The position numbers were made by a program, and so were the translations under genes. A stretch of 53,184 nucleotides of DNA, filler included, from Jimgerdemannia flammicorona (lineage: Eukaryota): the NCBI GenBank assembly GCA_003990765.1. It is 3 parts of 3 records of this genome, joined end to end, with 100 filler letters (N's around TTAATTAATTAA, not from the genome) between each part and the next. Parts side by side here need not be neighbours in the genome. Positions count along the whole stretch, not along the records: positions 17,767 to 35,427 come from RBNJ01002459.1; 2 more parts are not named here. One strand, written 5' to 3'. Below are positions 1-45,400 of this stretch, piece by piece. Under the pieces are notes generated by a model that made no database searches, was not told where the DNA came from, and was given only the letters and a program-made list of their open reading frames with translations. How positions within the stretch are numbered: the first letter of the stretch is position 1; each line of letters starts with the position of its first letter.

Positions 1-3000
1 TTTATAGTCCCTTGGACTCCATCTTTATTACCAGTCTATGAATAAGTATACAATATCCCCACCCACTAACCGATCCCCATCAGGGGGCCCCACCCCACCT
101 CTTCACGTATAAAGACCACCCTCTCACTAATAACTCCAACTCTCCCACCACTCTGACCACAGATTTTCACCACCAAGTGGTGCCTCCAACCCCCCTGCAG
201 CCCCCAACCACGCCACCAGCCTGTCAAGGTATCCTCCATAAGGAACTGCCATCTTGCTAACCGGCTCCCCAAGCTCTATCGCTCTCCCTCCTCAAATACA
301 AATAGCCAGTGGCCAGCCAGTCCAACCCAAATAGCCAACGCCCAGCCTAACGTAATCCACTCCTCCCCTATCCCTCCTATCAATTGATCTCTCAGGTCCT
401 CCCACCTCCCCCGTACATCATCACCCCTACACCTTACCCCCAAGTGGACCCCAATGGCCTGCCAAAAGTCCCCCAACACCTCACACTCCCCTAGCCAATG
501 TTCTGGCGTCTATACCAATCCCCCTTCCTGCCCTACATTATGGTACTCCTCGCAGTCAAAGCAGCCCCTGACAACAAGGTGACCTGAGCAGAAGTTAAGC
601 ATCACATTCCTCCTCAGCACACACCACCAGACTACCCAGTACTTCGGCGGCATCCAATTTTTCACTGTGGCACTCCAGGTCCAAACTCCATGCCAGTCCC
701 ACTCCTCACCAATTCCAACTCGTTGCCAACCACTAGGCCACAGATCCTGGCCCGGTCCCCTTTGGCATTTGATGCCATCATGGATGTTGAACTCTAGTAA
801 AGGCATGCCTCCCAGAAGAATGCTATCCCATCTCCACATCACCGGGCCCCAAGCCCTCTCCCCCTCATCCCCTCTCCAGCGAATACCAATGTGGCATGCC
901 CCCTCGGCTATACCCTACCAAAAGCCTTTAAATCTCAGTTGCACAGTGTTCTGAAGCCCAACTAATAAAAGAAGATCACCAGTCAAGCCTCTAGGTGATG
1001 TCCTCCTCTCCCATATCCTCTACAGCAAGGGGACCCAGCCCCCTCCATGCAATGCCACCGCCCTCCTCAGCCATCAAGCCCGCAAGCAGTGTAGTCTCTT
1101 GGGGAAGTCCACCAGCCCAAGACCACCTCTTGCCACTGGTAGGGACAGAGTCTCCCAACCAATCTGACTCCGTCTGCCAGCCCAAATCCATCCTTTGGCC
1201 ACCTTCACCAATCTCTTCACCACTCAGGCTGGGAAGTCCAGATGATAGGCCAAATACCACAGCTTCGGCAGCCAGTAAACATTCAAAATCGAGATCCTTC
1301 CTGCCAGAGAGAAGTGTCTACCCCCCCAACCCTGCAGGTCCTCCTCCCAAATTTCAATCCTCTGCTCCCACTACAGCTTGGGCAAAACAGACCCATAGAT
1401 CGACAAATAGATGCCCAAGTACCGCACTGCCTCTCCGGTAGGGACAATTGTTCCAATAACTTCTCCGCTCACCAAGCCATTGCCCAGCACCATTGTTTCG
1501 CACTTGTGCCAATTCAGCTTTGCCCCAGAGTTCGCCTCATACCACTCCACTGTCTTCTGGAGCTCCTCAACATCCACAGTCACTCCCAAACCAACCACCA
1601 TGTCATCTGCAAAGGCTCCAACCTTCCAGCCAACTCCATAGATAGAGAGCCCCATGATCTTCTGCCGAATCCTGTCCATGAGAGGTTCCAAGGAAAGAGC
1701 ATATAAAATGGGGGACAGTGGGTCCCCCTGGGGCACTCCCCTACCCAGAGGGAAAGCCACCCCTCAATGCCCATTGCACACGAGCGCAGCCCTACTCCTT
1801 TCCAGTAGGCTGACCATCGCCGACCGAAATGGGGCCGGAACTCCAATTCTATCTAATACTTTCGCCAGCCAGACTCGCTGCACCTGGTCATAAGCCTTCT
1901 CCTGATCCAAGAAGACAAGACACCCATCCAGTCCACAGGCTCGAGCACCTTCAATAACTCCATGTACCCAGGCCGTGTTATCTCTAATGAGCTGACCCCC
2001 TATGAAGCCCCTCTGTTCAACACCTACAATTTGCTGGGCCACCTTCTGTAGCCTTGTGACCACCACCTTAGTCACCAACTTCCTGTCCATATCTAGCAAC
2101 ATTATTGGCCACCAGTTCTTCCAATCCTCTCGCCTTCCCTTATTCTTATAGAGCAGCATCACCAGCCCAAGGTCTTGCTCCCCCACCCATCTCTCTGACT
2201 GCAATATAGAGTCACACAGTGCTGTCAGCTCCCCCAATATGTCCAGGACTCCAACCATTCGCTTCCAGAAATCCCAGGAGAGGCCATCCTCCCCAGGCGC
2301 CGTGCCCGAGGCTGTCGCGGCAAGAACCTGATGTATCTTGTCCTCCTTTACAGGCATCACCAGGTCACCTAGTCCCTCAGCTCGTGGTGGGTGCCAATCT
2401 TCTAATGTTTGGTCAATGGCTGTAGCATCCACCCCACCCTCCTCCTCACTCCATAATCCACTCCATTGTGCCTTCAGTGTTCCAAGGATGCCCTGTACAC
2501 CATACACTAGTACATCATCCGAATCAAGTACCCCTTCCCACCACTGCTGTACTCTTCTCGCTCGAAGTATCCTTGTGAGAAACTTGGAAGGCCTTTCCCC
2601 TTCCTCCACCCCCTGCCACTGAAGCCGTGCCACCAGGCCTTGCACTCTTACCTCTTCCTCTTCCCGCAGTACCTGTTGCAGTTCCCCAACCTCCATCCTC
2701 ACCCTCGTAATTCTCCAATCCTCTTCTCCCTCCACTGCAGCCAGTCTCGCCCACTCCTCCAGGAGCCTAGCCAATCTAGTAGAAGCCCAATGCACTTTCT
2801 GCCTTCACTGCCTCTCAGCCACTCTGCCAACCTCACTCCAATACATCCTGGCCATCTCTTTCATCCTCATCTACCGAACCCCAATTGCGGCCCCTTCCTG
2901 CTGCCAATTCACCACCTTCAGCTGAATGTCTTTTGCCCACTCCTCCCACCGGACCTCATCATCCAACAAGGAGGAATTCAGGCGCCAATGTCCAGGCCCA

Positions 3001-4637: not shown

Positions 4638-4693
4638 AAAAAATGTTGGTTATACTGTTCATGATAAAAATACAGTTGGTTCTCAATCAATCC

Positions 4694-6699: not shown

Positions 6700-6780
6700 G
6701 ATACTAGTAGCTTTTCTCCAGAAACTGTGTCGAAAGTGTTGCCAAAGGGTTGTGTAACCTGAATATTACCGGAGAAAGAT

Positions 6781-7720
6781 GTTCAAGTCCATCTTCTATC
6801 ACTATGGTCTACTATGAGTAATTGTTAGTGATCATAACCCCAAGTTCACCAGTCACTTCTGGCAAACTCTCTTTAAGACTCTGGGAACCCAATTGACTAT
6901 GTCTACTACTTTTTACCCACAAACTAATGGACAAGCCAAGTGCATGAATAGAACTCTAGAACAAATGCTTAGAAACTATATTTCTTATAAGTAAGATGAT
7001 TGAGACATCTACCTGACTTATATAGAGTTTGTATATAACAATGCTGTCTAATTATCTACTGGTCTTTCCCCTTTCCAGTTACTCTATAATCAAGATCCTG
7101 AGACCTCTGTAAGTCTATTCTCTTTCAAGAAAACCAGTCAAATACAAGTTCCAACTGTCAAGAACCTTATAGACAAAATGGATGAACTACTCAAGATTGC
7201 TACTGTGAATCTTCAGAAGACTCAACAGCATCAAGCTAAGTATGCTAATAAGAAATACTATGATGTCACTTATACTATTAGAGATCAAGTCCTACTATCT
7301 ACCAAGAACCTTAAGATATAATCTCAAGTCAACCACCCTTCAAACAAGTTTCAACCCAAGTATATCAGACCTTTTGAGATCACTGAACAAGTCTCTACAT
7401 TCTCCTACTGTCTCAAGCTATCTGAAACCATGAGAGTATATCCAGTCTTTCATATGTCATACCTTAAGACCTGAAACTAGTCACAACCCTATTCTGGTCA
7501 AATTCCTAAGCCTTCTATCTCTGTGATTATTGAAGACCATATCAAGTATAAAGCTGAGAAAATCCTTAATAAATGAATCTACTACTGCTATCCTGAATAT
7601 CTAGTCAAGTGGATGGGTTATTCTGAATATGATGTTACCTGGGAACTACTGGTCAATCTCAAGAACTCTCAAGATCTAGTTCAAGACTTTGAAGTAAAAT
7701 ATATTGCTCAATTCCTGTAG
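6781..7720 (+). pseudogene. Ty3/gypsy chromovirus integrase core + GPY/F region + chromodomain, decayed
   Basis: Translates as IVSDHNPKFTSHFWQTL...MSTTFYPQTNGQ...NRTLEQMLRNY, PKYIRPFEI, YPVFHMSYLK and EYLVKWMGYSEYDVTWE. Cut at 6780 by LINE copy A. Confidence 0.9.
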
Positions 7721-12090: not shown

Positions 12091-12104
12091 GGACCAACCT
12101 ACGC

Positions 12105-17946: not shown

Positions 17947-20900
17947 ATCCGGAAGAACTTGTATAACGTCCATATGATGTTGTCAAAAGTTCTCAACATG
18001 TTGTATATCTCGGTGTCGAGCATCAAATTCCTGCTCCGCCTCGATTATGTCACAGCATTCCAAAAGAAGATGAAGGCGCTCAGGTTCTCAGTGCTGTCGG
18101 CCTAGGACCCTGCGCTCCCACGCAACAAGAATGCCATGGAGGCCGTGAAGACACGGGTACTCCAATCATTCCATGCTTAGGTCCGGCAGTTGACAGATGA
18201 AGCCACTGCAAAGAGGCCCAAAGTGCAGACCTTCTACCGAGCTTGGGCCACAGAACTTGGCCTCACTCTCCCTCCCCTGCCTCTCTGTCAGCCAGCCCTG
18301 CTTCAAAGGTAGGTGGTACTGTAGCCATGACAGGTGATATGGCGATGGATTTGGAAGCTGAAGCTTCTACCTCAGGTGCTTCCCATGTTGTTGGTGCTAA
18401 TGCACCCAGCCCACAATGAGAGTCGGGTTCCTCAATGCACATGGACTACCCCAGGACAAGTTCGATGTGCTCAGTCAGTTGATTGGTCCTGCCCTCAACA
18501 TTCTTTTTATATGTGAAATGTGGCACATTCTGCTGCATCCCTCTCTGCTCATTCACATGTCCTCTCCTCTGGCGTTGTACAGGATCATGGGTCACCAGAA
18601 CGGTAATCTTGTGGTCCTTGTGTCAAACCATTTTGCTTCTCTTATTTCTGAGTCCTCCGCTGACCCCTTCCATATCTAGCTCATGTTCCAGGGCCTGACT
18701 TTGGTTGGGGTTTATGCCCCACCCTCTCTTCCCATTGATGGCTTTCGTGATCTTGTGTCTGGCCCATTCATGGGTAAGACCCTCCTGATTGGTGACATTA
18801 ATACCCACTTCGGTGCTCACCTTGGTGATGTCAACTCTGGCCCTCGTGACTGGATGGATGTCATTGACACTTCCTTGATGATGTGATCATTGAACCACCT
18901 GATCCCAGTGGCTGGATCCACACACGTTGATCACATGTTCGCCACCATGTCCCTCCACATGTCCCTCACCTGCTCCACCCCCCCTGTCGCTACTGACCAC
19001 CCCTCCCTCCTCACTATCTCCTTTCCCTTCTCCCCCTTGCCGGTTGCTGCCTTGGCTGGCATCCGTCATTACTCTGCGAGATATCTAACCAACCTGGTTG
19101 TCCAAGCTCAACTTCGGGAATCAGCTGATATCATTTGCGATACGGTTGTCAGATCCATCTACTCTGTCCAAGATCACATCGCTGGCTTTCACTCTGTGGA
19201 AGATCGCCAACAGTTCGTGGATTCTCTGGATGCCCTTTTGACCTCTGGTCTACAGTCAGTTTGTGAGAACATTCTTGGCTCGTATGACGTAAGAGAAATT
19301 AGGGCCACACTGCTCCCCCAGTGGGACCTCCTTCACAGTACATCTTTAGTCTCTGATGCTATTCGTGGTTTCAAGCAAGTGTACTGCTCCACCCCCCTTA
19401 CTCCCCTCCAATCCCACTCCCCTAATGTCTCGGTGTTCGATGACATGGTTGCTCACATTACCACTATCTTTGGCCAGCCGAACATCTCCCTCCGCCTCAA
19501 TGACTCTGAGGATGTCTTCCCCCTCATTGTGGGTACTCTTGGACTACAGTCTTAGTTTGACCAACCTGCGGTTTGGAGGGCTATCTGTAGCTACCCCCTC
19601 TCCATGGCCTGTAGCGCTGACTCCTTACATGTCTGGATCCTTCAGGTGATGGCAGGTGAGAAGGACGCTCCCTGTAGCCTGTCGAAAGCCTTGTCCTTTT
19701 TCTTCCAGATGTGCATGGTTTGGGGGCTCACTCCCCGCCGCTGGAACTCTGCCATCATCACCCTGGTTCCTAAGAAGGAGGAATCATATACGATTGATGG
19801 ATTTCGCCCTATCGCTCTGACTGAAATGTTTTCTAGACTCTTCGAGCAGTGTTTGAAAGGTTATGTCAAGAGCTGAAGTGGCCTGACAGAAATGTTACGC
19901 TGCCAAGGTGGCTTCCGAACCTGCTTCTCGTCCCTCTCTCATGTCTTGTTATCACATGAGATGTGAGCTAAGGGATGGAGCTGCCATGTCTTTTTTTACC
20001 TCTGGCAGGTATATGATCGAGTCCCCCTCAGGCTTATTCTTTCCTGGCTTGAGGCAAGAGGTGCTGATGCAGCCCTCCTTAGCATTATCCGAAGCTTATT
20101 CAACCACTGTTCTTATCAGGTGGTTGTTAACGGCCTCGTCACCCCTTAGGTCCCCACTGAGCGTTACCTCTTCCAGGGCTCTCTGCTCTCCCCTTGGCTT
20201 TTTGATATCTTTATCGACCCTCTTGCCTCCTTCTTTGATGAATAATTCGAGGAGTATAACTTCCCCCTCGGGCTCTTCTTTGCAGACGACATCACCCTCA
20301 CCCCCTGCACTGCCACGGAAGGGCAAAGGATGATTGACTTTTGTAAAAAATGGCTTCTAGAGAACGGTATAGAGCTCAACCCCAAGAAGTGCAGTTACGT
20401 TGGCCCGGCTGACTGTATCATGCGGATTGAGGCCCGCGACCCCCCTCTTATGTGTACCTGGGTGTGCTGTATACTAACAAAGGGTTTGACTTTGTCAGCC
20501 TTATGTTATAGAATGCAGTGTAGGCAGACCAAACTCTTGGGTTCTGCCATGCCTGTGGTCCTCTCTGGTCACCAATGGTCAAGCTGGCCATCCTTCGTAC
20601 ATTCATCAGGCCCCAGCTGGAATATGGCCTTCCCCTTCTACAAGTTTCCTACCTGGCAACTATCATGGAGCTTCAGGTGTTGAAGCATCCCAAGCAGGTC
20701 TTTGATGATGCTGTCACTTAGGTGGTTGGATTTTCTAGCCATCCCTTGCTTGGTAGTTCGATTCTCGGCCTCTCTTCCTTCCTTCGTCATATATCTGACC
20801 TCTGCTGCATGTTCCAAGCCCACCTGAATTGGTGTAGCAAGTCGGGCAACAACCCCATCAGCCTCCTTAGCGAGCACTTTGTCACGCATCCCCCAGGTTC

Positions 20901-21860
20901 TATCATTGACAAGTTCCGGCGTTAGACCTCTTGGCTTGACTTCCTCGACTAGTACTGGGACCTTCATCCCCAGGTCCACAAGACTCGCTCGCTCTGCTCC
21001 TTCCTTCAGTCCTTCCTTCGGGACCAGCTGCTACAGGAATGGGCCTCCTCCTCTCAGGCTCTCATTCAGTATATCACCCCCAAAGGCCGCTTGCGGTCGC
21101 GGAGCACTGACCATGTCCTCTCCTTCCCCCCCTGGCTTGTATGTTCTGCCCTTGCCTGGCATTATGGCTACTTTGGCCAACCCCGCCCCTGCCCCTGTGG
21201 AGATAAGTTTCATCATGGCCATCTCCTCAGATGCGGTCTTCTTGATGGTTCCCATTCTACTTTCTGAGGTTCTTCTGATCGTGATGAACAACTCGATTGG
21301 TTTTCCAATGACAAATGGCAGGAGGAGCTTCATGCCTACCATCTTCATGCTCTTCACAAGACAGCCTATCATGCTATAGACACTATGTGTAATTCTGGTG
21401 GCCACCTCACGGTCGGGTTCTACCTGACCGAGATTACGAAGATGCTTGGGTGATCGAGCAATCGCACATTTTCTTTACTTCTTTCTTTCCCCTCATTTGC
21501 CTTGGTTGGTTCCCCTGTTATTGAGAATGCATTGAGTTATTCATCTCATGTCAGTCATTTGGTGTTTAGTTGTCGATACAGTTCATGTAGCAGGTGCCGG
21601 GTGAATGTGTATTATATCTTAGCCTTTCTTTTCTTTGCTTCTTGCATTTATTATTTTTACGGCCATGACAAAATGGTTTTATCCAGCCCGTCCATAGGGT
21701 GGTCACCTCTCTGGCCTTTGATTTTGTACTTCTTAGCTAGTTGTTTACTTCACTGGCCTTGTTTTGCTTTTCTTATCTTAGGAGTCTTTATTTTTGTTGC
21801 TCCGATATACCTTATCTTCTCTACAATGAATAAATTCTTACTTGAAGCCTAACCCTAGCC
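17947..21860 (+). mobile_element. Non-LTR retrotransposon family T, copy T1 (5' part missing), ending in CCTAACCCTAGCC
   Basis: Collinear with 23094-27010. APE (GFLNAHGL, CE-WH, IGDIN, TDH), RT (FRPIAL, FQGSLLSP, FADD), C-terminal CPCG-x4-GH-x3-C. T-rich 3' UTR with AATAAA at 21829 and no poly(A). Confidence 0.9.
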
Positions 21861-21960
21861 ACTCACGTGATTTCCTCATTTGGCTAGACTCGGGTTTACA
21901 GCCCGAAGCTATTCCAAATTAAGAAAGCAGTCACTTTGATTAGCTAAGCCTCTCATCGGG

Positions 21961-21968
21961 TATAAATA
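21961..21968 (+). promoter_or_regulatory. Candidate TATA box in the T2 5' region
   Basis: TATAAATA 110 nt upstream of the ORF1 ATG; CACGTG at ~21864. Motif match only. Confidence 0.35.
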
Positions 21969-22070
21969 CCCCCCTTCACCATTATTTTTTCATTGTACAA
22001 ACAAAGGTCACATGACCCGCATTTCACAATTTCACAAATACAAATAAACACACCTCTACCTATTTCGGCA

Positions 22071-23567
22071 ATGTTGGCCACCTCTTCCATTGTTGGTGAT
22101 GACGGCAATGTCACCCATCTCTTTGCGTGCTTCGGCGCCTCTCTCCACTGTGCTGAATGTTACAGCGTCGGTCTTCTCTCCCTCAGTTTTGGCAAGGGTA
22201 GTCTTATGGTGATGTGTAGGTCGTGTGGGGATATATGACTAATATCGGCATATTTATCTCCCCTGCACAATGCGGAAGATGATGAAGAGATTGCAATCTC
22301 TTCTGATTTGAACCATGATGCTCAGTGCCCCCCCTTTTCTCCCACGCCACTGCCCCTTAATTGGAATAAGCGTGGTTGCCCGAACACTAGTTTGGGCATG
22401 ACCCCGAGTGCCGGTCATGCGGGCCCCTCAGCCGACCCTGATCTGGTTACGGAGATGGCCATGATGAGGAAGCAGATTTTAGATCTGCTGACTCAAGTGG
22501 CCAAACTGACTAAGATCAACATCCAGCTGATGGCGCAGCTTGCTGCGTGGTCTGTACCCACCACCCCCTCATCATCTGGTGCTCCTTTGGGAAGTACCCC
22601 CGCTGCCTCTTCCACATCCGCCCCCCCCAAGTCCTTGGTCCCCCCTCCTACTGGTCTTACCACTAACATGCGGTTGAAGGCCCAGAAGCAAGCAGACAAG
22701 CGGGCTGCTAAAGCCACTGCATCGCAGTCTGGTGCACTGCCAAAGGAGGCAACTCCCATGGCTGTGCCCTCAGCCGCTAAAGCCGTGCCCCTAAAAAGGG
22801 TAAGGCCAAGGCTCCTGAACCAGTGCCCCAGGTTACGCCTGTGGGACCCAGCACCGCCAGTCCATCTTTGTCCCATGCTTCGACCCCCACCCCCACAAAT
22901 TGTACACCACCGTGACCAAAAAGGTTTCTATCAAAGATAGAACCCAGGCCTACCCTGAGACAGAAAGGACAGCTGCCGCTGCCATTCTTTCACGCATGAC
23001 TGCAAGCCAACCTCTCATTTGTCACCGACTGAGAAGGGCGCTAGGCTGCAGCATGTTTATGTCGATGGATTTGCCCATCTCAAGATTGGGCAGATCTAGA
23101 AAAACTTGTACGACGTCCATGTGATGTTATCAAAAGTTCTCAACATATCGTATGTCTCAGCGTCGACCATTGAATTCCTTCTCTGCCCTGATTATGTCAC
23201 GGTGTTCCAAAAGAAGATAAAGATGCTTGGGTTCCTGGTGCTGTTGGCCTGGGACCCTGTGCTCCCATGCAACAAGAATGCCATGGAGGCCGTGAAAACA
23301 TGGGTACTCCAATCCTTCCATGCTTGGGTCTGGCAATTGGCAGGTGAAGCCACTGCGAAGAGGCCTGAGGTGCAGACCTTTTACTGAGCTTGGGCCATGG
23401 AACTTGGCCTCACTCTCCCCTCCCCTGCCTCCCCATTGGCTGGCCCTGCTTCGAAGACAGGTAGTACTGTGGCTATGACTGGTGATATGGTGATGGATCT
23501 GGAAGCTGAAGCTTCCTCCTCAGGTGCTTCTCACGCTGTTGACGCTAATGCGCCTGGCCCACAATGA
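22071..23567 (+). pseudogene. Family T ORF1 (N-terminal CxxC...CxxC, short coiled-coil-like segment, Pro/Ser/Ala linker, C-terminal globular part)
   Basis: ORF pieces 21993-22238 and 22308-22940 are in one frame across a TGA; 23106-23387 follows. The terminal TGA overlaps the ORF2 ATG. Confidence 0.7.
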
Positions 23568-26500
23568 GAGTTGGGTTCCTCAATGCACACAGACTACCCC
23601 AGGACAAGTTCGATGTACTCAGTCAGTTGATTGGTCCTGCCCTCAACATTCTTTTCGTATGTGAAACATGGCACATTCCGCTGCATCTCTCTCCGCTCAT
23701 TCACATGTCCTCTCCTCCGGTATCATACAGGATCATGGGTTACCAGAATGGTGGTCTTATGGTCCTTGTGTCAAACCATTTTGCCCCCCTCATTTTCGGG
23801 TCCTCTGCCGACCCCTTCCATATCCGACTCATGTTCCAGGGCCTGGCTTTGGTCAGGGTTTACGCCCCCCCCTCTCTTCCTATTGGTGGCTTTCGTGATC
23901 TTGTGTCTGGCCCATTCATGGGTAAGACCCTCTTGATTGATGATATCAATACCTGCTTTGGTGCTCACCTTGGTGACATCAACTCTGGCCCTCGTGACTG
24001 GATGGATGTTATTGATACTTTCTTAATGACATGGTCATTGAACCACCTGACCCTGGTGGCTGGATCTACGCACATTGACCACGCATTTGCCACCACATCT
24101 CTCCACATATCCCTCATCTACTCCACCCCCCCTGTTGCTACCGACCACCTCTCCCTCCTCACTGTCTCCTTCCCCTTCTCCCCCTCACCGGTTACTGCCT
24201 TGGCTGGCATTTATCATTACTCTGCGAGATATCTAACCGACCCGGTTGTCCAAGCTCACCTCCGGGAATCAGCCAATATCGTTTGCGATATAGTTGTCAG
24301 GTCCATCTACTCTGTCCGGGATCACATAACTGGCTTTCGCTCTGTGGAAGATTGCCAACAGTTCGTGGATTCCCTGGACGTCCTTTTGACCTCTGGTCTA
24401 TAGTCAGTTTGTGAGGACATTCTTGACTCATATGATGCAAGAGAAATCAGGGCTGTGCCGCTCCCCCAGCGGGACCTCCTTCGCAGTGCATCTTCAGTCT
24501 CTGATACTATTCGTGGTTTCAAGTGAGTGTACCACTCCACCCCCCTTGCTTCTCTCCAATTCCGCTCCCCCAATGTCTTGGTGTTCGACGATGTGGTTGC
24601 TCACTTCACCACCATCTTCAGCCAACCGAACGTCTCCCTCCACCTCAATGACTCTGAGGATGTCTTCCCTCTCAGCATGGGTGCTCTTGGACTGCAGTCT
24701 TGGTTTGATCAACCTACGGTTTGGAGGACTATCCACAGCTACCCCCTCTCTAAGGCCTGTGGCGCTGACTCCTTGCATGTCCGAATCCTTCGGATAATGG
24801 CAGGCGAGAAGGATGCTCCCTGTAGCCTGTCGAAAGCCTTGTCCTTTTTCTTCCAGATGTGCCTGGTTTGGGGGCTCACTCCCCACTGCTGGAACTCTGC
24901 CATCATCACCCTGGTTCCTTAGAGGGAGGAATCACGTACGATTGATGGATTTCGCCCTATTGCTCTGACTGAAATGTTTCATAGACTCTTCGAGCAGTGT
25001 TTGGAAGGTTACGTCAAGAGCCAAAGTGGCCTGACAGAAATGTCGCACTGCCAAGATGGCTTCCGAACCTGCTTCTCATCCCTCTCTCATGTCTTGTTAT
25101 CGCACGAGACGTGGGCTAAGGGATGGGGCTGCCATGTCTTTCTTGACCTCTGGCAGGCATACAATCGAGTCCCCCTCAAGCTTATTCTTTCCCGGCTTGA
25201 GGTGAGAGATACTGATATAGCCCTCCTTAGCATTATCTGAAGCTTATTCAACCACTGTTCTTATCAAGTGGTTGTAACGGCCTCATCACCCCTTCGGTCC
25301 CCACTGAGCATGACCTCTTCCAGGGCTCTCTCCTCTCTCCTTGGCTCTTTGACGTCTTTATTGACCCTCTTGCCTCCTCCTTTGATGAATAATTCAAGGA
25401 GTACGACTTCCCCCTCAGGCTCTTCTTTGCAGACAACATCGCTCTCACCCCCCACACTGCCACGGAAGGGCAAAGGATGATCAACTTTTGTGAAGAATGG
25501 CTTCTGGAGAATGGTATGGAGCTCAACCCCAAGAAGTGTGGTTACGTTGGCCTGGCTGACTATACCATGCAGATTGGGGGAGAACCCTGCCCACAACCCC
25601 CCTCTTACGTATACCTGGGTGTGCTGTATACTAACAAAGAGTTTGACTTTGTTAGCCTTGTATTACAGAATGCAGCAAAGGTGGAATGAACTCTTGGATT
25701 CTGCCATACCCGTGGTCCTCTCTGGTCGCCAATGGTCAAGCTGGCCATCCTACATATGTTCATCAGGCCTCAGCTGGAATATGGCCTCTCCCTTCTACGA
25801 GCTTCCTGCCCAGCAACTACCACAGGGCTTCAGGTGTTGAAGCGTCCCGAGCAGGTCTTTGATGATACTGTTGCTTGGTTGGTTGGATTTTCCAGCTGAC
25901 CCTTGCTTGGCAGTTCGATTCTCAGCCTCCCCTCCTTTCTTCGTTGTACGTTCAACCTCTGCTACATATTCCAAGCCTATCTGGATTGGTGTAGCAAGTC
26001 TGGCAACAACCCCATCGGTCCCCTTAGCAAGCGCTTTATCACGCATCCCCCAGGTTCTATCATTGACAAGTTCCGGCATTGGATCTCTTGGCTTGACTTC
26101 CTCGACTGGTACTAGGACCTTCGTCCCCAGGTCCACAAGACTTGCTCGCTCCGCTCCTTCCTACAATCCTTTCTTTGGGATCAGTTGCTGCAGGAATGGG
26201 CCTCCTCCTCACAGGCTCTCATTTGGTATATCACCCCCAAAGGCCACTTGCGGTCGCGGGGCGCCAACTGCATCCTTTCCTTCCCCCCCTGGCTTATGCA
26301 TTCTGCCCTTGCCTGGCACTATGGCTACTTTGGCCAACCCCACCCCTGCCCCTGTGGAGATAAGTTTCATCGTGGCCATCTCCTCAGGTGTGGTCTTCTT
26401 GATGGTTCATATTCTGCATTCCGAGGTACTTCTGATCGTGATGAATAGCTCAATTGGTTTACCAGTGATGAATGGCAGAAAGAACTTCACGCCTACTCCC

Positions 26501-27046: not shown

Positions 27047-30000
27047 ATTGGCTGATAATTTAAAATAAATCCTCACTTTTAAGCTAAAAAATAAACAACT
27101 ACCAGACTGCTATATAGACTATTATGTCATACATAGTATTTGTCTATACCATCTACTATTAATTACTTATTTTGGTTGTCAGCCTCATTCTGTGAATCAT
27201 TAGTATTAAACAATAGATACTCTGCAAAGAACTACATTATTGAGTTAATAGCTGGATCACTCTCTAGTTTGAGGAATAACATTATAAGAATTAATCACTA
27301 AAAATGCTAAATAAACCACTATGCTAAATAGACTACTGTATAGACCACCACTGCAACCTAATTTTGAAAAAAGATAAATAAACTACTGTACAGACTGCCA
27401 CTGCTATCCAATTTTTGAAGATATTATTTATCTGTATCATCTGCTATTAATTGCTTATTCTGATTATTAGTCTTATTTCTGTGAACCATCAGTATTGAAC
27501 AATAGATACTCTACAAAGAACTATATCATTGAGTTAATAACTGGGTCACTCCTTAGTTTAAGAAATAACATTATAAGAATTAATTACTAAAATATCTTCC
27601 AATATATGAATGGACTACTATAGAGAATTAAAAGATGTTATATATGAACCACTTAAGTAAAGAATACCATTATATGTCTTTTGATAATATACAAATATCT
27701 CCTGACATATAAATAGACCACTATAGAGAATTAAAAGATATTATATACAAACTGCTTGAGTGAAGAATACTATCTGATATATGAATAGACTACTATAGAG
27801 AATTAAAAGACATTATATACAAATCTCTCAAGATAATATATAAATGGAATGAACTGCTCTAGAGAACTAAAGATACTATTACTCTGACTTTTGAAGATAT
27901 AAACATTACCTATTGCAAATAAACTAGTATCCTATTGAAGACATTATATATAAACCCCTTAAGTAAAGAATGCCATCATATAACTTTTGATGATATACAA
28001 ATACCTCATAATATACAAATATCTTATAATATATAAATATCTTCTATCATTCAAATGGACTGCCATAGAGAATTAAAAGACATCATATATAAACTACCTA
28101 AGTGAAGAATACTACCTGATCTTAGAAGATACTGTCACTTACTAGATACTAATACCCAATTTTTGTAGACACCATTACCTGACTTTTGTCCAAACTACTG
28201 CCTGAATTAAAACTTTTAGGATCTCAAAAAATATTCTGATAATCACTTAGATATAATATTATAAACAAGTCTATATAGGGAGAACAAACATATAAATATT
28301 ATAATATAAGAATTTAAATAAGTATTTTTGTATTAAAAATAATCTATTCAGGAGAAAGATATGATTTATAGTATGAAATAGAAATAAGAATTAGGAGAAT
28401 GAATATTTGATTGTGATACCTAAATCTGATTTCCTGATTTATTATAGTATAGAAATTATCTTTACTATAGATACTATATCTAAAATATTATCAGTGAAAC
28501 TCTTGTTACTTTTACAAAATTTAGATAGGATTTCACATAAGATTATATCTGAGATATAGATGGAAATTTTACATGAAAAGACTTATTACTTAGCTGCATA
28601 TTTAGTAGTGCAAACTTATATAAATAATCCAGTATCTTAGAGTAAATAAACCTCAGATTGAACCAGTTTAATTCAAAGGTCTTCTTTATATACCCTTTCT
28701 CTCCATTTTAAAATACTATTAATTTACTAAGTTTCACATCTACAATGTTATACTATATAATCCTCTCTCTGAGCTATATATAGTATATTTGTAATCTTTG
28801 AATAAATCAGTATAGTGTTTTCTATATTAATATTATAATAGTAGTATTGTATCTATCTCTTGATATTCTTTAAATTAATAATAAGAATATTCTCAAATTT
28901 ATAAAGTAGCTTCTTTAGTTTCTTATTGAGTAGAAATTTATTTTTAATAAATAGCTATACTTATCTATGATTTTCTTCTCCTTATAGTCTAATTTTATAA
29001 TCTTAATACTAATATAGACTCTTCTTTTTATAGATTTAAATATTCTTTATATTTTATCTAATATTTTGACTTTTAGAATCTTAGATTATAATACTAAAAA
29101 AATAAGTATCTGTATTATTAAATTCTTTTTGTTAACTGTAAAAAAAAATTTCAAAAATCTAATTTCTAACAATAATGAGAATTTTTCCAGTATAGTTTAA
29201 ATTAATAACTCATATTTTAATTGAGATTTCACTCTTAGCTAAACTACTTTTTGTTTTGAGAATTCTGATAATATTATTTAGAATAATTATTTTTAGATTA
29301 GTTATAAGTAAAGTTATTATTTAAAGTTTAAAAACTATCTCTATAACCATAATAATATCTAGTTTAAATATATTTTTTTATTTAAATTCTAATAAAAGTA
29401 TATCTAGATATATATATCCTCCAAATATTGATCTTATTTTTTCTTTATTATTACTATTTTCTAAGAGAGCTAAATACTCATCTTCTTAGTCTTTCTTTTT
29501 TTACCTCTTCTGTTTTGTTTTTTATTTTTACTTTTCTGAGATAATTTATATCTTTTTCAAGAATCTTTTTAGCAAATTAATAGTATTTTTTATAAATATT
29601 AATAATATATAGTAGTTATAAATATATATATTATATCTAAAATCTATATTGACTAATTTCTTGAAAAAAGTAGTATTGAGTAATCTTTTAATATTAATCT
29701 TTTTTAATGATCTAACTAATCATTTTCTTCTTCTTATTTATTAATTTCATTCTCTATTATAGAAAGTTTCTTTATTAATATTGATTGAAATTTACATCTT
29801 TTAAATATTTATATCAATTATTGTCTTGGTTTTGTAAAGCTACTGATTACTAATAAAGATATCATATTTGGTAATACTGATTATAATTATATCTACTGAA
29901 ATAGTTACTCTTCTGAACTTAATGAAAATATCTCAGATCTTTCTCAAAAATATAACTCTAATATTATCTACTATAACAAATATCAGTTTTGTGGAATTTT

Positions 30001-30332: not shown

Positions 30333-30715
30333 ACAACCGGTTGAGCCTGATTATTATTCTATTATAGGCATGTTCCTTGGAAAGAGTGCTTCTTCGGAAT
30401 TCTAAATTAAATAAACAATCTTTGCAGGCTTTACGAGGGAAGACCTTGTTCTTGTGGCATGCGTCTTGTCGTTGTGCGATGAGCATGGGAATAAGGGGTG
30501 GCGTAATCGCAACTGTTAAAGATCCGATTGGGACGGAATTGAACCGAAATGGATCGAACGGAGTATTAGCGTAACCTTAGACAGGGCAACGATTGGAGTG
30601 CACATGACAATCGGGTTTGACCCGAAATGGATGAACCCGGCCAATCGGTTTTGCATCTCCGAATGTGTCAAACGCAAGCGCGAATTCTTGACTTCAATAC
30701 CCACCAACTCACAAC

Positions 30716-33700
30716 ATGCAAATATCTTTATCAAAGGATACCAACAGCGACGGCTCTAAAGAAACCAGGGTCCTCGTTGAGGTTGCCATCGCTGATGATG
30801 AGCAAGCAGAATTCCGTTACAGCCATTTCTTTGACCTTCAACATATTGAAGCTGGTCGATCCATCGCCGTCGAAGTCTTCGACAAGGAGCCCAAGTCTGC
30901 GGATCTTAGAAAATATGGAAAGTTGTTATTTAGAGCCCTCTTCTCGAAAGATAATGCCAGTCCTGCTCGGCAATTACTTGATGAAATATTGCTGCCTCGC
31001 CCACCCGGTCGAATTTTACTTAAGCTCAACCATGACACTGACCTTGACATCATCCCCTGGGAGTACACGTGGGGCAACAATGCATATTTGATCAGTCACT
31101 GTATATTTGTACGCTTGCACAAACTAAAGGGCCCTCAGCAATCGAAACTTTCGCACAATCCCAAGGTCTCTCAAATATCGTATAATCCGAAGTTCCCTAA
31201 GACATCGCATAATCCGAAGGGTATCCAGCCATCGCACAATCTGAAGATCTCTCAGCCGAAGGGGCCTCAGACATCGCGCAATCCGGAAGAGACTGAGCCA
31301 TTGCAACGTCCGACGGGGAGCCAGGCAACGCACAATCCGAAGGTCCCTCAGCCATCGCACAGGCCGAATGGGCCGCAGACATCGTGCAATCCGAAGGGAT
31401 CTCTACCTTCGCGTAATCTGAAGGGGTCGATGCCATCGTACAGTCCGAAGGGGCCTCAGCCATCGCACAATCCGAGGGGGTTTGAGCCGTCGCACAGTCC
31501 GAAGGGGCCTCAGCCATCGCGCAACCCAAAGGGGTCTGAGACATCGCACAGTCCTCAGCCATTGCGTAATCCGAAGGGGTCTCAGCAATCGCGCAATCTG
31601 AAGGGGCCTCAGCCATCGAAACTTCCGCAGCTTCCGCTCCGCATTGTCACCGTTGTACCAAACCCCATACTCCCGCCAAACGATCCCAACGTGAATAGTT
31701 TTCCGGATCTGCATTTGACCGATCAATTTCAGACATTATTCGATGAGTATAACAAAAACAATCAAAGAGTGTTACTGCACCGTGTGTTCCCGCCGACCGT
31801 CGAAAGAATGTACTCTTCACTTATGATGAAGCCCGAAATGGCCACAGTGCTTCATTTCATGGGACACTGCGGCTCGCAGAGCGATCGTACAAGGGCCCTC
31901 ATCTTCGAAGATAACGACACGGGTAATCTCGACTTTGTTGACACACTGCGCCTCGGCAACATGGTGAAGAACTTGCGATTGGCATTTCTATCTGCCTGCG
32001 ATACACGTGTTGTCGCCCGAGTCCTGGCGGAACAAGAAATTCCATATACTATCGGTTCATACTGTCGCCTGCCAGACGACCTCGCTCGCAAGTTCGAGTA
32101 TAAATTCTACCAGTTCCTTGCCAGCGGCAAAACGGTGGAAATAGCGATGTTGGAAGCGCGTGTGTTTATGCAACACTCGAATATCATTCGACAACGCGAC
32201 TACTTCCCCGGTGCTATGGTGCTTTACTCATCCACGTTTTCAGAAGAGGATGGTGTGTTTAAGTACGAGGATGGCAAGCCCACGGTCGAACCCCACATGC
32301 CCGTCAACAATCTCGAAGTGATCTCCATCACACCAATTTTTTGCGGACGGAAGAACGAAATAATTGAGTTGGCTCGCGTTTTGAGGAGCATGGCGAAGCA
32401 AGGGGCACAGACTTGTCGCATATACACTATTGAGGGCATTGTCGGCCAGGGGAAAACAGCGTTGGCCGAGAAGGCGGCCAGATGGACGGCGCATCTTTTC
32501 CCTGGTGGAATTTTTGTTTGGCGGTTCGATCCTTCGCGCGCAGTATCGGTTATGGACTATTTGCAGCACCTGAGTCAGGTCATATTCCAGGAAGCCCTGA
32601 CTGGTGATTTGGACATGCTGGAACGGGACCTTATCAAGAAATTGGAGTCTCGTCCGACGAGTTTGCTTATCCTCGATCAAGTCGATATATTGAAACATGC
32701 ACAAGTCATGGGCAATGGCGAGGCTGTATCCTTGGTGAACTGGCTTCGGAAGGTGGTATCGGTACCTGATCTCGCAGTAAGAATTCTTGCAACGTCGAAT
32801 CAACGTTTGAACTGGACAGCACAGGAGGAAGTGATGCATCTCAATGGTTTAACTGATTTTGATATTGAGAGTGGCGTCGAGATGTTTATTCGAAATCTCG
32901 ACTCAGAAGTAAGGAGGAGGATGGAGAAGGAGGAAAATACAGCTCAGTTATTGCGCGACCTCATCAGGCTCCTAGACGGACATCCGCTGTCTCTGAAATC
33001 CCTTGCCCGAACGGTTTGCCTACCGCAACATTCTGATACGTCGCTTCAAGAACTCATCCAAGAACACTACAGTATAATGCTGGCGAATGACTCGGATTTG
33101 AGTACAAAACTCAGAAGTCATTTCCGATCAACGATCGAAACACTTCTACCTTTGGAGTGCCAATTTATATTTATGTGTTCTCTCTTCATCGGACCAATCA
33201 CAGAAGAAGTGCTAGAATTCGTCCGTCATTTTGTTGAGTGCGTCGATGGATCCAAAAATGGGATCGATTCTAGAGCGACGATCACGAAGAACCTTCAACA
33301 ACTTTACCGTCGCGGGTTATTGTCCAATCGAAATGAGGAATACAGTATGCAATTCGCACTTAGGGAAGGCGCCAGGCTCTGTAACTCCCTGTGGAAATTC
33401 CGCCTGCACTTGCCGATCCCAGGTTTGATCAATGACACATTTGTAATTGGTGTGGTCGGACCATCTCAACGTGGTGAGTAATATACTGGAGCAAGATCAT
33501 TCATATGTCTCCTATCCACTTGTTCTAAATCTATTGTCCATCATAACAGTGAATTCCATGGTGTTGGGATGGCAACTCCGAAGAATTCAAGCCAATGCTC
33601 ATAGGGTACTGAAGACCAGGGGTTTTGGCATACACTACTACTCCATCGGAAATGAAGGACTTCGAATTTTCAAAATTGATGGCATGGCCAGCGACAGTAT

Positions 33701-35427
33701 CGACGGTGACAGTTTCGACGATGACAGTATCGACGGTGACAGTATCGACGGTGACAGTATCGTCGATGACAGTATCGTCGATGACAGTATCGACGATGAC
33801 AGTATCGACGGTGACAGTATTGACGATGACAGTATCGACGATGACAGCCTAGCCAAAGTCGTACCACGGGAAGATGCATTATATAGTCGGTTGGTGGTGT
33901 TCATATACAACATCTCTGAATGCAGCCATGACAGCCTCGTTCGATTTTCCAAAGAGCAAATTATACCACTTGTTCAAGAAAAACGAATGGCTTTTATTCT
34001 TTGCTTGAACCATACCGATAACGAGTTTGTGGAACGATCAAAGGCTGCTTCAGTTCTGACTATGAAAGCCGCAGAAATCCTTCAAACAAGCCTGAAGGAG
34101 TCGCACTGGATAATTAGAACAGAAGCTTCTCGCAGTAGGTTTAAAATTTCGTACCACTGTCATTGCATATATTAAATACTTTGTATTGTTAATTTTACTA
34201 ATACAAATGTTATCCAATATATATATTCTGACAGAGTTTATGCAACCCAACGGGGACTCAGGTGAAAAAATTTCTGTATTAAAATAAATCAATGTGATTG
34301 GTCATACTTTCTGGCTGACCTAGCTGCTTTCAATCCACCTACAGCGATGAATGAAAATTTTGACAACAAAACAACGGAGATGATTCACCGTAAACGTAAC
34401 GACAATGTCCACATGGAGGGAGATTTCGTTGGACGCACAAAAGATCTCAATGAGTTAAATGAACTTCTCAAAGGCCCTAAGCGTTTTATTACCATCAAAG
34501 GATTTGGTGGGATTGGAAAAACGGCATTGGCACTTCAAGCTTTCAACAGCTACAACTCTGGTAGCGCTCTTGCGCTATCTCTTACTGGAGTACCAAAATC
34601 AAATCAAGTGATCCTGAAGATTGCAGAGTTTTCTGCTGTAGACACCAAAGGTTTGGAAGATCAAGAACAACAGCCCAAAGTGCTTGAGGCATTGAAAGGG
34701 GAAGAGACAATTTTACTCTATCTTGACAACATGGAAGACATCAAACTTGCAATTTGTGGAAAAAACTCTGAGATGAAAAAGGAGGCAAAGTCATTGTTTA
34801 CCTTTTTCAAAATATTACCAAAAAATGTCAAAATTCTTGCTACATCACGAATCGCACTAGATTGGCCTAATGAACAGTTTTTCGATGTAACTGGTTTGAC
34901 ACCACACGACGGCATGCAGGTCTTTCGTCAATGGATCCCCCAGCGCTTGCAAGCAGAGAATATAGACGATGAGAGCGGAATGGAGCTTAGTCGTGTAGTT
35001 GATGGTCATCCATTGTCTATTCGCCTTCTAGGAGGAATGTTTGACAATTGCAAGGAACCGATCCAACAATTCATCAACAAGGTTCATGAACGACTTCCTA
35101 CAGCTGTGAATGACGAATCCATTAATGAGCGACACGAATCGATAGACGCCTGCATCGACTACAGTTTTTGTAACTTGGACGATGAACTCAAGAAGTTTTT
35201 GTGTCTGTTGAATGGCTGGAACATTCCATTTACACCAAAACTCATCTTGCGCTCTTTTCAAGATGACCCTGTTGCTCTATCAGCATCGCCTATCTCAACC
35301 AATTTGCACAAACTTTGGCAAAGAAGCTGGCTAAACCGACGAAAATACGAGGTCGACCCAATGCTCGGTGACTGGCGCCCCAACATTATCTCGAATGAAA
35401 CCGAGTTTTATAGCCTGCATCCACGCC
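30716..35427 (+). CDS. NLR-like protein: CHAT protease - STAND/NB-ARC - degenerate Ras-like GTPase - second STAND/NB-ARC; 3' partial. Predicted exons 30716-33473, 33550-34134, 34235-34261, 34324->35427
   Basis: CHAT: IPWE, LHFMGH, FLSAC. STAND1: FCGR, GIVGQGKT, LLILDQVD, ILATS, GHPLSL. STAND2: FVGR, GFGGIGKT, LLYLDNMED, ILATSR, GHPLSI, YSLHP. Three phase-1 introns (GTGAGT..CAG, GTAGGT..CAG, GTGAAA..GCTGACCTAG) join all ORFs in frame. CpG-rich and free of stops, unlike the flanking TEs. Confidence 0.85.
31124..31635 (+). repeat. Coding 27-bp minisatellite, about 18 degenerate units of PKGPQPSHN, inside the CHAT region
   Basis: Consensus CCGAAGGGGCCTCAGCCATCGCACAAT visible in both DNA and protein. 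Confidence 0.95.
33693..33848 (+). repeat. Coding 15-bp minisatellite, 10 full units of DSID(G/D)
   Basis: GACAGTATCGACG(G/A)T x10 plus a partial unit. Confidence 0.97.
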
Positions 35428-35527
35428 NNNNNNNNNNNNNNNNNNNNNNNNNNNNNNNNNNNNNNNNNNNNTTAATTAATTAANNNNNNNNNNNNNNNNN
35501 NNNNNNNNNNNNNNNNNNNNNNNNNNN
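35428..35527. other. Artificial assembly spacer
   Basis: Same N44-TTAATTAATTAA-N44 structure as 17667-17766. Confidence 0.97.
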
Positions 35528-42420: not shown

Positions 42421-45400
42421 CTCTCTCTGTTATAAATTATATTATATAAACTTTTAACAATACTTTTGATATAGTTTTTAGAGCAAAGATAATAATAACA
42501 TAGTAACCAACAAGAGATTAGAGGAGTATGCTAGATAGAGTAGCTCTAGTACATTTGACTAGCAGTATATAGAGAGGAGTTATGACTTGGAGGGAAGTAT
42601 GAGGAACTTGCTAGCTGGAGGACATGGAAGAGAAGGTAGCAGTACTAGAAGGTAGAGGACTGAAAGAGTGAGCTTTGCTAATAAGACCAAGGCTGAGCAC
42701 TCATTGACAGTCTTGGAGACCTGGTTGCAGAGTGATAAGGAGAAGAAGAGAGATATAGGAGCTAATAGAGAGACTCCTGGGAGTAGTGGTGGTAGGGCTG
42801 GGAGAGTTGTGGCTTAGAGGAGTGAGACTGCTAATAGAGGGAGAATTGCTAATTTGAAAAAAAATCCAGATATAACAGCTGATGGTAGGGCTGGACAGGA
42901 GCAAGACATGAGGCCTAGAGATCTAGCTGATAATATAATGGGCCTGATGGCAGTACTGTTACTCAAGAAATCAGTGTCCAAATTTACTATTATATTATAC
43001 TTCTAGGGTCTAATAGTCATAACAAGGATGGTTCTAAGGTTGCTGACCTAGGAGGTGAAAGGGGCTGCCTTGGTGAAGTTCTTGAAGGGTCTAGAGAGGA
43101 TTGAGATAGGGTTTGAGAAGGAGAAGTTAATGCTGGAGATATTGAAGAAAGAGGTAGTTGAAGAAAGAGGTAGTGGTAGCAACATTCAGGTTACATGATC
43201 CTTTGACAATACTTTCGATACAGTTTCTGGAGAAAAGCTACTAGTATTATGGTGACCAATGAGCATCCTGAGGTGCAGACTGGGCAGGGTGGCCCTGGAG
43301 CATTTGAATGGCAGCAAGTGGGGAGAGGCCCTGGCTTGAGGGGAAGTATGAGGGGCCTGCTGATAGGAGGCCGTGGTGGAGGAGAGGGCAGAGCTGGAGG
43401 TCAAGGGTCTGGCAGGGTGAGCTTTGCAGAGAAGGTGAAGGGGAGTCGGCAGGGAGCTGGGCTGGAGAGCTGACTGAGAGGGGGGAAGGTACCAGTGAAG
43501 ACTACCAGGCAGCAACCTCTTAGGGGTACCTCTCTGGAGGGCCATAGGGGTGGAGCTAGGGGGGTAGTGGCTGGGGTGGAGACTGCTGATGGGGGTGTGA
43601 TGGGTGATCTGGAAAAAAATCTAGATGGGACTACTGATGGTGAGCCAAGCAGTGGGAAGAGCATGAGGCCCGGAGATCTGGTGGATGGTGTAATGGGACT
43701 GGCAGTGGCTCCATTACTCAAGAAGTCAATCTCAGTATTTGCAGTCACACTGTGCTTCCAGGGCTTAGCAGTGATGGCAAAAATGGTGTTGGGGCTTATC
43801 GCTAAGCAGGTGGCAGGAGTGGCTTCAGTGAAGTTTCTGAAGGGACTAGAGGGGGTGGAGGTGGGTTTTGAGGAGGTTGAACTGCTGGAGGAAGCACTGA
43901 AGGTTGGGCTGGTGGTTGGGGAGGTGTGTGTTCCAATGGCAAGGTATTTGAAATGGGATCCGAGGGTGGTCCAACTGCTGGTAAAAGGAGTACCCATGGT
44001 GACAGTGATGGAGATGAGGAAGAGAGTGGAGGATGTCATGGCAGAGTACGGAGAGGTGGTGGATATCGGATTCAGGGTCTGGGAAGGGACCATGCTCAGG
44101 ACTGGGGATGTGGATGTGAGGATTCGGCTGGCTGGGAAAGAGGCTACTGGGAAGGCGAGGGACTGGCCTTTGGTGATGGTTTGGGGAGCATTTCTGTGCA
44201 AGGTGACATGGGTGAAAGGAAGTGAAGAAGAGGAGGAAGATTTATTGGAAGCGCTGGAAGAACTGGATGGGGCTGTGGAGTGGCAAGCTAAGGCCTGGAA
44301 GAATTTTGAGGAGTTGATACACCTGGAGGTGGTGGATGGAAAGAGGATTTGAGTGGACAAGGTGCAGTAGGAAAGGACTCAGGGGCAGAAGAGGCAGAAG
44401 GATCTGCTGGCTAAACTGGGGAGTGGACTACAGAAGGATGAGAGTATGAAGCTGGGTGCAGAAGGGGCTGGAGCGAGTGTCTGGGTGGGTGAGAGGAGTG
44501 GGAATGATAGGGCAAAGACAGGGAAGGCAAAAGAGGTGAAGACTAGTGACCCATATGCTGATGGCACCTTGGAGGTTTGGGATGAAGTCTGAGAGAACTC
44601 CCCCACCCCTTCCCCTCTTATCAGGTATGGCCCAGCTTTCAGGAACAAGTCTGGGGAGGACATGACAATGCTGGGGACCCAGCAGGTGAAATTCAGTGTT
44701 CCGGAGATAATGAATGGGGACCGAGTAGTGGCGGCTGGGGAGGAGGAACTGGTGGATGTCTCGGAGGTGTGGGATGAGGATGCAAGTGCCAGAGCTGACA
44801 CCATGATGCTGGATAGAGGGAGGCCAGCGACCCCTGGTGGGAAGGAGGTGGGGAACCTACTTTGGATGTGCTGGATGATGAATAACCTAGCAGCAGAAGA
44901 GCTGGGGGAGGTGGACTTGTATGGCATGGGTGATAAGTACTGGACAAGAATTTTGCAGGGGGAAGGAGTGGCAATGGCACTGAAGGCAGAAATTCTCATG
45001 GTGTATCTGGAGGAGAAAGGGTATGAGGTAGACAAGGAGAGGAAGGCAGAGTTGGTGGTCATTGCTGGGGAGAAGGCTGAGTACTATTGGAACAGGCATC
45101 ATAGGTTGCAGCTTTGGCAGGAGGCTTGTATTGAGTACAGAGAGGAGTTTGAGGAGAAGGCAGATGAGGAGATGAATGAGCTGTTGGCTGGATTGGAGGC
45201 TCAGAGGGCTGAAGAGGAGGTGATGGCTGAATATAATCTGGACAGGGCACAGGAGGAGATGGGCATGGAGCAGTAGGGATTGATTGAGAACAAACCGTAT
45301 TTCATTATGAACAGTATAACCAATATTTTTCTTTGAATGTAAATGGGCTAAGGGGTGCAGTTAGATGCAGGAACATTTTTATTTGATTGAAGGGATTAGA

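Follow-up and report, generated by a model that had tools for sequence, protein, structure and literature searches.

What is the segment of about 150 residues that separates two nucleotide-binding modules in a receptor-like gene of the fungus Jimgerdemannia flammicorona? The gene lies on the plus strand of a window of 53,184 nucleotides (the whole stretch of DNA analysed here, joined from three records of assembly GCA_003990765.1), in the part taken from RBNJ01002459.1, and all positions below count along this window. It is a multi-exon, intron-bearing gene that encodes a protein similar to NOD-like receptors (NLRs; NOD, nucleotide-binding oligomerization domain), and its 3' end is cut off by an assembly gap at 35428. 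The order of its parts is a CHAT protease, a first NB-ARC module of the STAND type (signal transduction ATPases with numerous domains), the domain of about 150 residues with a (DSIDx)10 insert, and a second NB-ARC module. An initial annotation, made from the sequence alone, had described the segment as a degenerate Ras/Roc-like GTPase fold that might serve as a decoy sensor. We favour, with a probability of roughly 0.6, the reading that the segment is a relic TRAFAC-type P-loop GTPase and is now built firmly into a family of fungal NLR-like proteins that is restricted to one lineage. The gene as a whole is probably a fungal CHAT-NLR with tandem NOD modules and a pseudo-GTPase insert.

The segment is a real, conserved domain family for which Pfam has no model. 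A phmmer search with exon 2 (33550..34134), the body of the domain, against 1.84 billion representatives gave 100 proteins at the cut-off of E <= 0.001. Thirty-six were fetched, and 34 of them are relatives that are 29-46% identical to exon 2; the other two, P0040 and P0070, are repeat-only peptides and were rejected. The long matches P0004, P0011, P0023, P0031 and P0093 were also discarded, since they match the acidic repeat or are repeat proteins matched by chance. Ten more relatives came from a profile search and a cluster look-up, for a total of 44. All 44 are fragments of 61 to 284 residues with no precomputed Pfam domain; three of them carry names, as hypothetical proteins from Endogone sp. 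FLAS-F59071 (Mucoromycota, Endogonales). Strand and helix blocks are conserved across them; in the 45-row alignment A3, conservation reaches 90% or more at L114, F117, P147, F148, I149, C151, L177 and L181.

Architecture outside the window is known from three Endogone fragments. P0020 and P0059 extend upstream into the helical end of module 1, with 42% identity to exon 1 of the window, and P0018 extends downstream into the second NB-ARC, with 49% identity to the matching part. The domain starts about 15 residues past the last helix of module 1 in P0020, in P0059 and in the window. The placement proposed in the initial annotation, after the first STAND winged helix, is supported: the segment follows immediately on the helical/winged-helix end of the first STAND module, and the second NB-ARC comes next. 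Searches for longer relatives through a word index, with exon 2 and with residues 95-270 of P0020 as queries, returned none that scored. A scan of metagenome loci with the 11-row alignment A4 gave 177 pattern matches, and none was confirmed by tblastn. Most relatives are "proteins" of 100-190 residues which start in intron 1 or at the start of exon 2 and end a few codons into intron 2. These hypothetical proteins are single-exon fragments of large receptor genes that were called as separate open reading frames.

The initial annotation was built on six short strings given in small-GTPase order. By themselves these loose strings would hardly convince as more than chance; the case is made by the 44 relatives with their conserved strand and helix blocks, and by relic motifs at shared columns. 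The P-loop string, FVIGVVGPSQRVNS, forms once intron 1 is spliced, as had been claimed. Exon 1 ends with TFVIGVVGPSQR at 33472 plus a g at 33473, and this part (33437..33473) encodes strand beta1 and the beginning of a degenerate Walker A motif; the tail of the open frame reads LHLPIPGLINDTFVIGVVGPSQR. The predicted intron 1 (33474..33549; 76 nt, phase 1, GTGAGT...ACAG) splits the P-loop codon. Its donor, g|GTGAGT at 33474, is a consensus site, and the acceptor ACAG|TG 76 bases on opens a 194-codon frame, so that exon 2 reads (g|tg)V-NS-MVLGWQL from 33550. The annotated spliced models P0059 and P0020 read straight through this point, and P0059 carries FLIGVPSSSRPGKS at beta1 and the P-loop, equal in length to TFVIGVVGPSQR of the window. 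The spliced product has GPSQRVNS at the place where a GTPase has GxxxxGKS. The first Gly and the last Ser are kept, and Gly-Lys has become Val-Asn. The window copy thus has no GxxxxGK[ST] at G1, and the reported loss of the P-loop lysine was right, with the preceding Gly absent as well. In the hhalign comparison, the GKS of Era-type G domains is matched to this column.

Exon 2 reads (V)NSMVLGWQL...KTRGFGIHYYSIGNEGLRIFKIDG, followed by about ten DSIDx units and by ...LVVFIYNIS...MAFILCLNHTD...HWIIRTEASR. Four further strings of the initial annotation, KTRGFG (33612-33629), LRIFKIDG (33660-33683), LVVFIYNIS (33891-33917) and FILCLNHTD, are all present in this exon in the order given. At the G3 place the window has KIDG, with Lys for the Asp of DxxG, and then the repeat insert. 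NHTD (34008..34019), at the end of beta5, occupies the G4 place; it keeps the Asn and Asp of NKxD, has His for Lys, and is aligned to the NKxD motifs of GPN1, eIF5B and Era-type proteins. Neither G2 nor G5 is recognizable: the Thr in LKTRGFG is at an unconserved column, and the G5 place has TEASR, not SA[KL].

The sixth string, EASRK, held up in part, and its last residue depends on how the intron 2 region (34135..34344) is spliced. TEASR is present in exon 2. One predicted intron of 210 nt (GTAGGT...TACAG) gives EASRT. The alternative model splits the region into introns 34135-34234 and 34262-34344, with a micro-exon of 27 nt (34235-34261) between them; it requires an acceptor at 34234 and yields EASRK FMQPNGDS A. 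The single intron leaves a spacer of 27 residues before NB-ARC 2, equal to that of the annotated Endogone protein P0018 (...RTE to ...DGNFVGR), and fits this relative best. The micro-exon is unproven, and with it the earlier statement that the last motif depends on a predicted intron 2. The motif order survives both models of intron 2, and five of the six strings hold under any splice model. Fragment relatives often end in ...TE.P.[GS]K[LF], and these tails would fit a GTAAGT donor that is read through where intron 2 lies in the window.

The remains of the nucleotide-binding motifs are distributed over the family. At G1, GKS is found in 2 of 12 rows (P0059 and P0056), with Gly in 8, Lys in 5 and Ser in 7 of the 12, as compared to V-N-S in the window. 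DxxG is kept in 2 of 28 rows at G3 (P0009, DIAG; P0016, DVPG). NxxD at G4 occurs in four of the 44 rows, the window among them, and the fourth-place Asp in 15. The G5 string is unconserved, with TE.P as the family consensus. We read this pattern as that of a family which would have descended from a true P-loop GTPase and is now largely dead. Because Gly-Lys and the G3 Asp are lost, no canonical Mg-GTP binding is expected of the window copy; it would be a pseudo-GTPase, with neither canonical GTP binding nor hydrolysis. Of the G motifs, this copy has kept only the G4-like NHTD.

The DSIDx tandem repeat (33693..33847; 15-nt unit, 10.3 copies, 92% matches, in frame) sits in the loop between beta3 and beta4, at the place of switch II, and is predicted to be disordered. 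This loop has 73 residues in the window versus 0 to about 30 in the relatives. The acidic loop may be a microsatellite that the protein tolerates, or else a surface that varies.

The relation to GTPases was examined by profile-profile comparison. The family profile was aligned by hhalign with a G profile made of eight Era-type G domains of E. coli K-12 (Era, the two of Der, HflX, MnmE, YihA, ObgE and FeoB). When columns were defined by the first row, the local score was 24.2 (P = 0.0042) over 48 columns, from beta4 to beta5. With columns of at least 50% occupancy, the score was 36.2 (P = 6.3e-5, probability 64.6) over 134 collinear columns, in which GKS falls on the PKY/GKS column of the family, DtpG on DRGT and NKxD on LKHD. 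In neither set-up did any of 150 block-shuffled family profiles score as high as the native one (maxima 19.9 and 18.4 vs. native 26.5 and 29.1; means about 12.5, standard deviation about 2). When 43 single proteins were compared with the G profile, the family came right behind the nine true GTPases and narrowly ahead of three P-loop ATPases. Non-GTPase controls scored 7.0-17.9 against the family profile. We also considered whether the segment might be a third, degenerate NB-ARC and rejected this, for the family profile is unlike the protein's own NB-ARC modules (P0003, the second NB-ARC, scores 8.7).

Sequence, language-model and structure searches lean in the same direction. All six matches of profile A1 to PDB sequences at E <= 10 are GTPases (GPN1, Fzo1 twice and eIF5B three times; E 0.44-1), although every PDB match of A1 and of a second profile, A2, is sub-threshold (E 0.34-1). 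The printed alignment of A1 with GPN1 spans beta4, alpha3 and beta5 with NKxD; those with Fzo1 start earlier and put the beta3 stretch of the family on the 'DSPG' of the chain. By ESM Atlas features, nine of the ten matches shown for exon 2 are clusters of MMR_HSR1, Dynamin_N or AIG1, with a best value of 0.87 against a bar of 0.9, and all ten best family-bearing matches belong to one clan. In the Atlas structure search with P0034, eight of ten rows are GTPase clusters (TM-score by query 0.48-0.62), the Atlas model itself being poor (predicted local distance difference test, pLDDT, 0.50). AlphaFold2 was used to model the whole domain of the Endogone relative P0020, from a 46-row alignment, and exon 2 of the window, which is without beta1. 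The P0020 model (pLDDT 80.3, predicted TM-score 0.75) has the order b1-loop-a1-b2-b3-b4-a-b5-a-b6. The ordered blocks of exon 2 have a pLDDT of 85-93, and residues 41-113, the repeat, about 53. The small-GTPase order of the initial annotation is borne out to the extent that AlphaFold2 predicts an ordered alpha/beta domain with its elements in G-domain order; the Ras/Roc assignment is not supported.

No Ras, Roc or Arf family of Pfam was matched at E <= 1 in the window proteins or at E <= 10 in the rows of A3; a COR domain is absent, the next domain being NB-ARC, and the structural matches to Rag and to the Roc domain of LRRK1 are at noise level. The nearest profiles are Era-, MMR_HSR1- and dynamin-like, and the domain is not assignable to Ras or Roc.

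A number of results weigh against GTPase descent or reduce the force of the evidence for it. No GTPase family of Pfam was found in exon 2, and only one of the 45 rows of A3 matches RsgA_GTPase, at a noise-level E of 0.033. Foldseek found nothing in PDB at E <= 0.001 for either model, and its list for the P0020 model is without any GTPase. Superpositions on GTPases begin at beta2 of the models (48..160 and 23..194) and omit beta1-alpha1, so that the motif register gains no confirmation from them. This same beta1-alpha1 part is weak in the model (pLDDT 57-77), and beta1 is covered by three alignment rows, with about 12 more starting at the last P-loop positions. With profile A2, GTPases make up 4 of 12 PDB matches, the rest being nebulin (three) and adenylyl cyclase (five). 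The hhalign score depends on the settings, from 24.2 to 36.2, and proteins which match through the P-loop only come close to it (MobB 35.4, FtsH 34.0 and RecF 32.8, over 16-24 columns). In the reverse test, with nine single E. coli GTPases against the family profile, only Era stands out (23.7, P = 0.0076); the others are not above controls. To these points are added the position of the gene among decayed retrotransposons, its truncation by the assembly gap, and the inferential nature of any adaptor role for the domain. GTPase ancestry draws on several independent weak tests that lean the same way, with no single test decisive, and we infer it to be quite probable.

Exon 1 (30692..33473) belongs to an open frame of 929 codons (30692-33481; first ATG at 30716) and contains CHAT, the first STAND/NB-ARC module and, at its extreme end, strand beta1 with the start of the degenerate P-loop. 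The matched part of the CHAT (caspase-like) protease is at 31754..32188 (residues 354-498; Pfam PF12770, E = 5.6e-12, 46.1 bits vs. a cut-off of 24), and its His and Cys motifs, HFMGHCG and LSACDT, are both kept as read by eye. The first STAND NTPase (32339..33010, residues 549-772) matches AAA_22 (E = 3.2e-6), NACHT (1.1e-3) and NB-ARC (3.3e-3) of Pfam, and has the P-loop GQGKT, the Walker B motif LLILDQVD and GHPLS. Exon 2 corresponds to a 194-codon frame (P0001, 33552-34133) that holds alpha1, the beta2-beta3 hairpin, the repeat insert, beta4, alpha3, beta5 with NHTD, alpha4 and beta6. Exon 3 (P0003, 34345..35427) encodes the second NB-ARC (E = 4.1e-10, 39.8 bits vs. a cut-off of 23.5) with the motifs GFGGIGKT, LLYLDNMED and GHPLS, and its frame of at least 360 codons is still open at the gap. 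Both NB-ARC modules thus have an intact Walker A (GQGKT, GIGKT), a Walker B-like hhhhD and GHPLS. With CHAT and NB-ARC twice, the protein has the first two parts of a fungal CHAT-NLR; the third, C-terminal repeats, would be hidden by the gap at 35428. The flanking enzymatic parts, CHAT and the NB-ARCs, look functional and the middle domain degenerate.

The gap (35428..35527) consists of N's that enclose a TTAATTAATTAA linker, and a T run comes next. The gene is cut short by this assembly join, and the sequence beyond may be non-contiguous in the genome. A second in-frame tandem repeat of the gene (31151-31618), with about 17 copies of a 27-nt unit spread over two arrays and 65-72% matches, lies between the N-terminal region and the CHAT match and encodes nonapeptides like PKGPQPSHN.

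Contigs from two sequencing runs were compared with the region 32900-35400, and no splice joints were found in either set. Run X1 gave two contigs of 151 nt that are identical to the window over 34196-34469. Those of the public run X2 are short, mostly below 95% alike to the window (7 of 12 below 90%), and fall within 32917-33703 and 34789-35330. They cover parts of exons 1, 2 and 3, and one passes unbroken from exon 1 into intron 1. Paralogues or a related strain seem to be the source of the DNA in the X2 contigs.

Other origins of the domain were considered. The main rival to GTPase descent is a generic three-layer alpha/beta domain, flavodoxin- or Rossmann-like, which arose separately and mimics the order of G motifs. 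The GTPase leanings would then reflect common beta-alpha-beta geometry and hydrophobic strand patterns. Against this, four methods rank GTPases first or near first, and in the 134-column collinear alignment the relic motifs GKS, DxxG and NxxD fall where a GTPase has them. The block-shuffled profiles fall far below the native score, and the non-GTPase alpha/beta controls OmpR, NtrC, BioH and RlmE score 8.5-14.3 against the family profile. We regard a separate origin as unlikely, although it is the strongest of the competing explanations. A fusion of two NLRs, in which the domain would be the N-terminal signalling or effector domain of a second unit with NB-ARC 2 and lost C-terminal repeats, seems to us improbable. 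The spacer between the domain and NB-ARC 2 is only 27 residues, as in P0018, and the N-terminal domains of fungal NLRs are very diverse in the available parts of two reports (PMC9815663, PMC10197012). On the other side, however, the domain is joined as tightly to the end of module 1, whose last helix it follows at a distance of about 15 residues. No protein with the stand-alone domain and one NB-ARC was found, a weak argument since the searches for longer proteins returned nothing.

The remaining explanations concern the state and the use of the domain. Neutral wear in a decaying pseudogene with no present function could account for both motif loss and microsatellite expansion; the truncation by the gap, two in-frame tandem-repeat expansions, and the decayed retroelements around the gene, with at least five fragments of reverse transcriptase and one of endonuclease, would suit it. 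It is hard to reconcile with three consecutive exons whose frames are open (929, 194 and at least 360 codons), with CHAT and NB-ARC motifs that are intact and with repeats that both stay in frame, and the motif loss is common to most of the family, which makes it old rather than private decay. We give this explanation little credence. Still slightly less can be said for the integrated decoy proposed in the initial annotation, in which a copy of a host small GTPase is held out as bait for effectors or toxins that modify GTPases. Circumstantial points in its favour are a non-canonical domain inside an NLR-like protein, the loss of catalytic motifs, which a bait can tolerate, and the hypervariable switch II place, expanded in the window. 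A check for swapped domains, however, found the domain constant: flanks are visible in three relatives, P0018, P0020 and P0059, and in this small sample all have it at the same position, none showing another domain instead. With its 44 diversified relatives, the domain does not look like a sporadic integration. There is no detectable close similarity to housekeeping GTPases, and the usual toxin targets, switch I and switch II, are not conserved with Ras, Rho or Arf. We consider the decoy very unlikely.

The relic G domain that we favour can be compared with several known systems. Like the Era/MMR_HSR1-type and dynamin-like TRAFAC GTPases (PF01926, PF00350), which are its nearest neighbours by language-model features and in the Atlas structure search, it has the order b1, P-loop, a1, b2-b3, b4, a3, b5 with [N/K]xxD, a4 and b6. 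Unlike them, it has no significant sequence match, and G1 and G3 are lost in the window and G5 in the whole family. Where Era-type domains have alpha2 and switch II, it has a variable loop, and it is embedded between two STAND ATPases, neither free-standing nor ribosome-associated. ROCO proteins such as LRRK1 and LRRK2 combine a Roc GTPase with COR; in the present gene NB-ARC takes the place where COR would follow. Integrated domains of plant NLRs vary between paralogues and resemble effector targets. Our domain is likewise a non-canonical domain inside an NLR, but it is constant in its family and close to no housekeeping protein. PseudoGTPase domains are described, in the available parts of the reports, for p190RhoGAP (pG1 and pG2; PMC5593906), AAGAB (PMC12490416) and the septins (PMC10731463). 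To judge from these parts, they share with the present domain a G-domain-like fold (putative here), the loss of nucleotide motifs and a place as structural or interaction module in a larger protein. The differences are that no sequence relation is detectable, that the host protein here is an NLR-like receptor, and that the fold is known from prediction.

The available text of two reports (PMC10197012, PMC9815663) indicates that fungal CHAT-NLRs are thought to work by proximity-induced protease activation and that some lie beside gasdermin genes. In the present protein, as in them, a caspase-like protease of the CHAT type stands at the N-terminus and is joined to a STAND NTPase. It differs in having two tandem NB-ARCs with an extra domain between them, and in that its relatives are from Endogonales and not from Dikarya. 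Among 43 frames chosen from the 111 open frames of at least 100 codons in the window, none is gasdermin-like, though short exons would escape such a scan.

As to its role, we suggest that the relic G domain might act as a folded adaptor that sets the geometry between the winged-helix end of NB-ARC 1 and the nucleotide-binding domain of NB-ARC 2. Such a role would be the most economical one, and it matches what is described for the pseudoGTPase domains of p190RhoGAP, AAGAB and the septins. It may also offer a contact face of the G-domain type during oligomerization, and so could help to bring CHAT proteases together. The acidic loop would then be a tolerated, fast-changing surface element. A more far-reaching idea is that Endogonales, which belong to the subphylum Mucoromycotina, may hold an expanded, undescribed tandem-NOD family (CHAT protease, NB-ARC, relic G domain, NB-ARC) in which the switch II loop of a dead GTPase has become a fast-evolving, repeat-expandable recognition or bait surface, the G domain being recycled as a sensor. 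This idea is speculative, and we think it rather improbable.

The gene is an island among decayed fragments of non-LTR (non-long terminal repeat) retrotransposons. These lie on both strands at 1-7000, 12000-17500, 18800-26500 and 43000-48000. In the 43 frames scanned, reverse transcriptase (RVT_1) was matched in five, with a best E of 1.4e-19, and endonuclease (Exo_endo_phos) in one. GC skew is very strong (up to +/-0.5) and flips with the orientation of the elements. Directly upstream of the gene, the stretch 28000-30000 is extremely AT-rich (GC 0.20) and has no long open frames.

A keyword search of the open-access literature found no GTPase-like domain between tandem NB-ARCs and no NLRs of Endogonales. 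Within the available part of one report, NACHT/NB-ARC proteins were not found in six new genomes and 14 NCBI proteomes of Mucoromycotina, among which Endogone may or may not be included (PMC7928374). The gene described here would document NB-ARC receptors in the Endogonales lineage. It also bears on annotation, as many hypothetical proteins of 100-190 residues in this family are exon fragments of large receptors. Fungal NLR-like receptors are known to swap their N-terminal effector domains and their C-terminal repeats, but it is unusual for them to have an additional conserved domain placed between two nucleotide switches. If the GTPase ancestry is true, a pseudo-GTPase would have been recruited into a STAND receptor, in a domain family that is new to Pfam.

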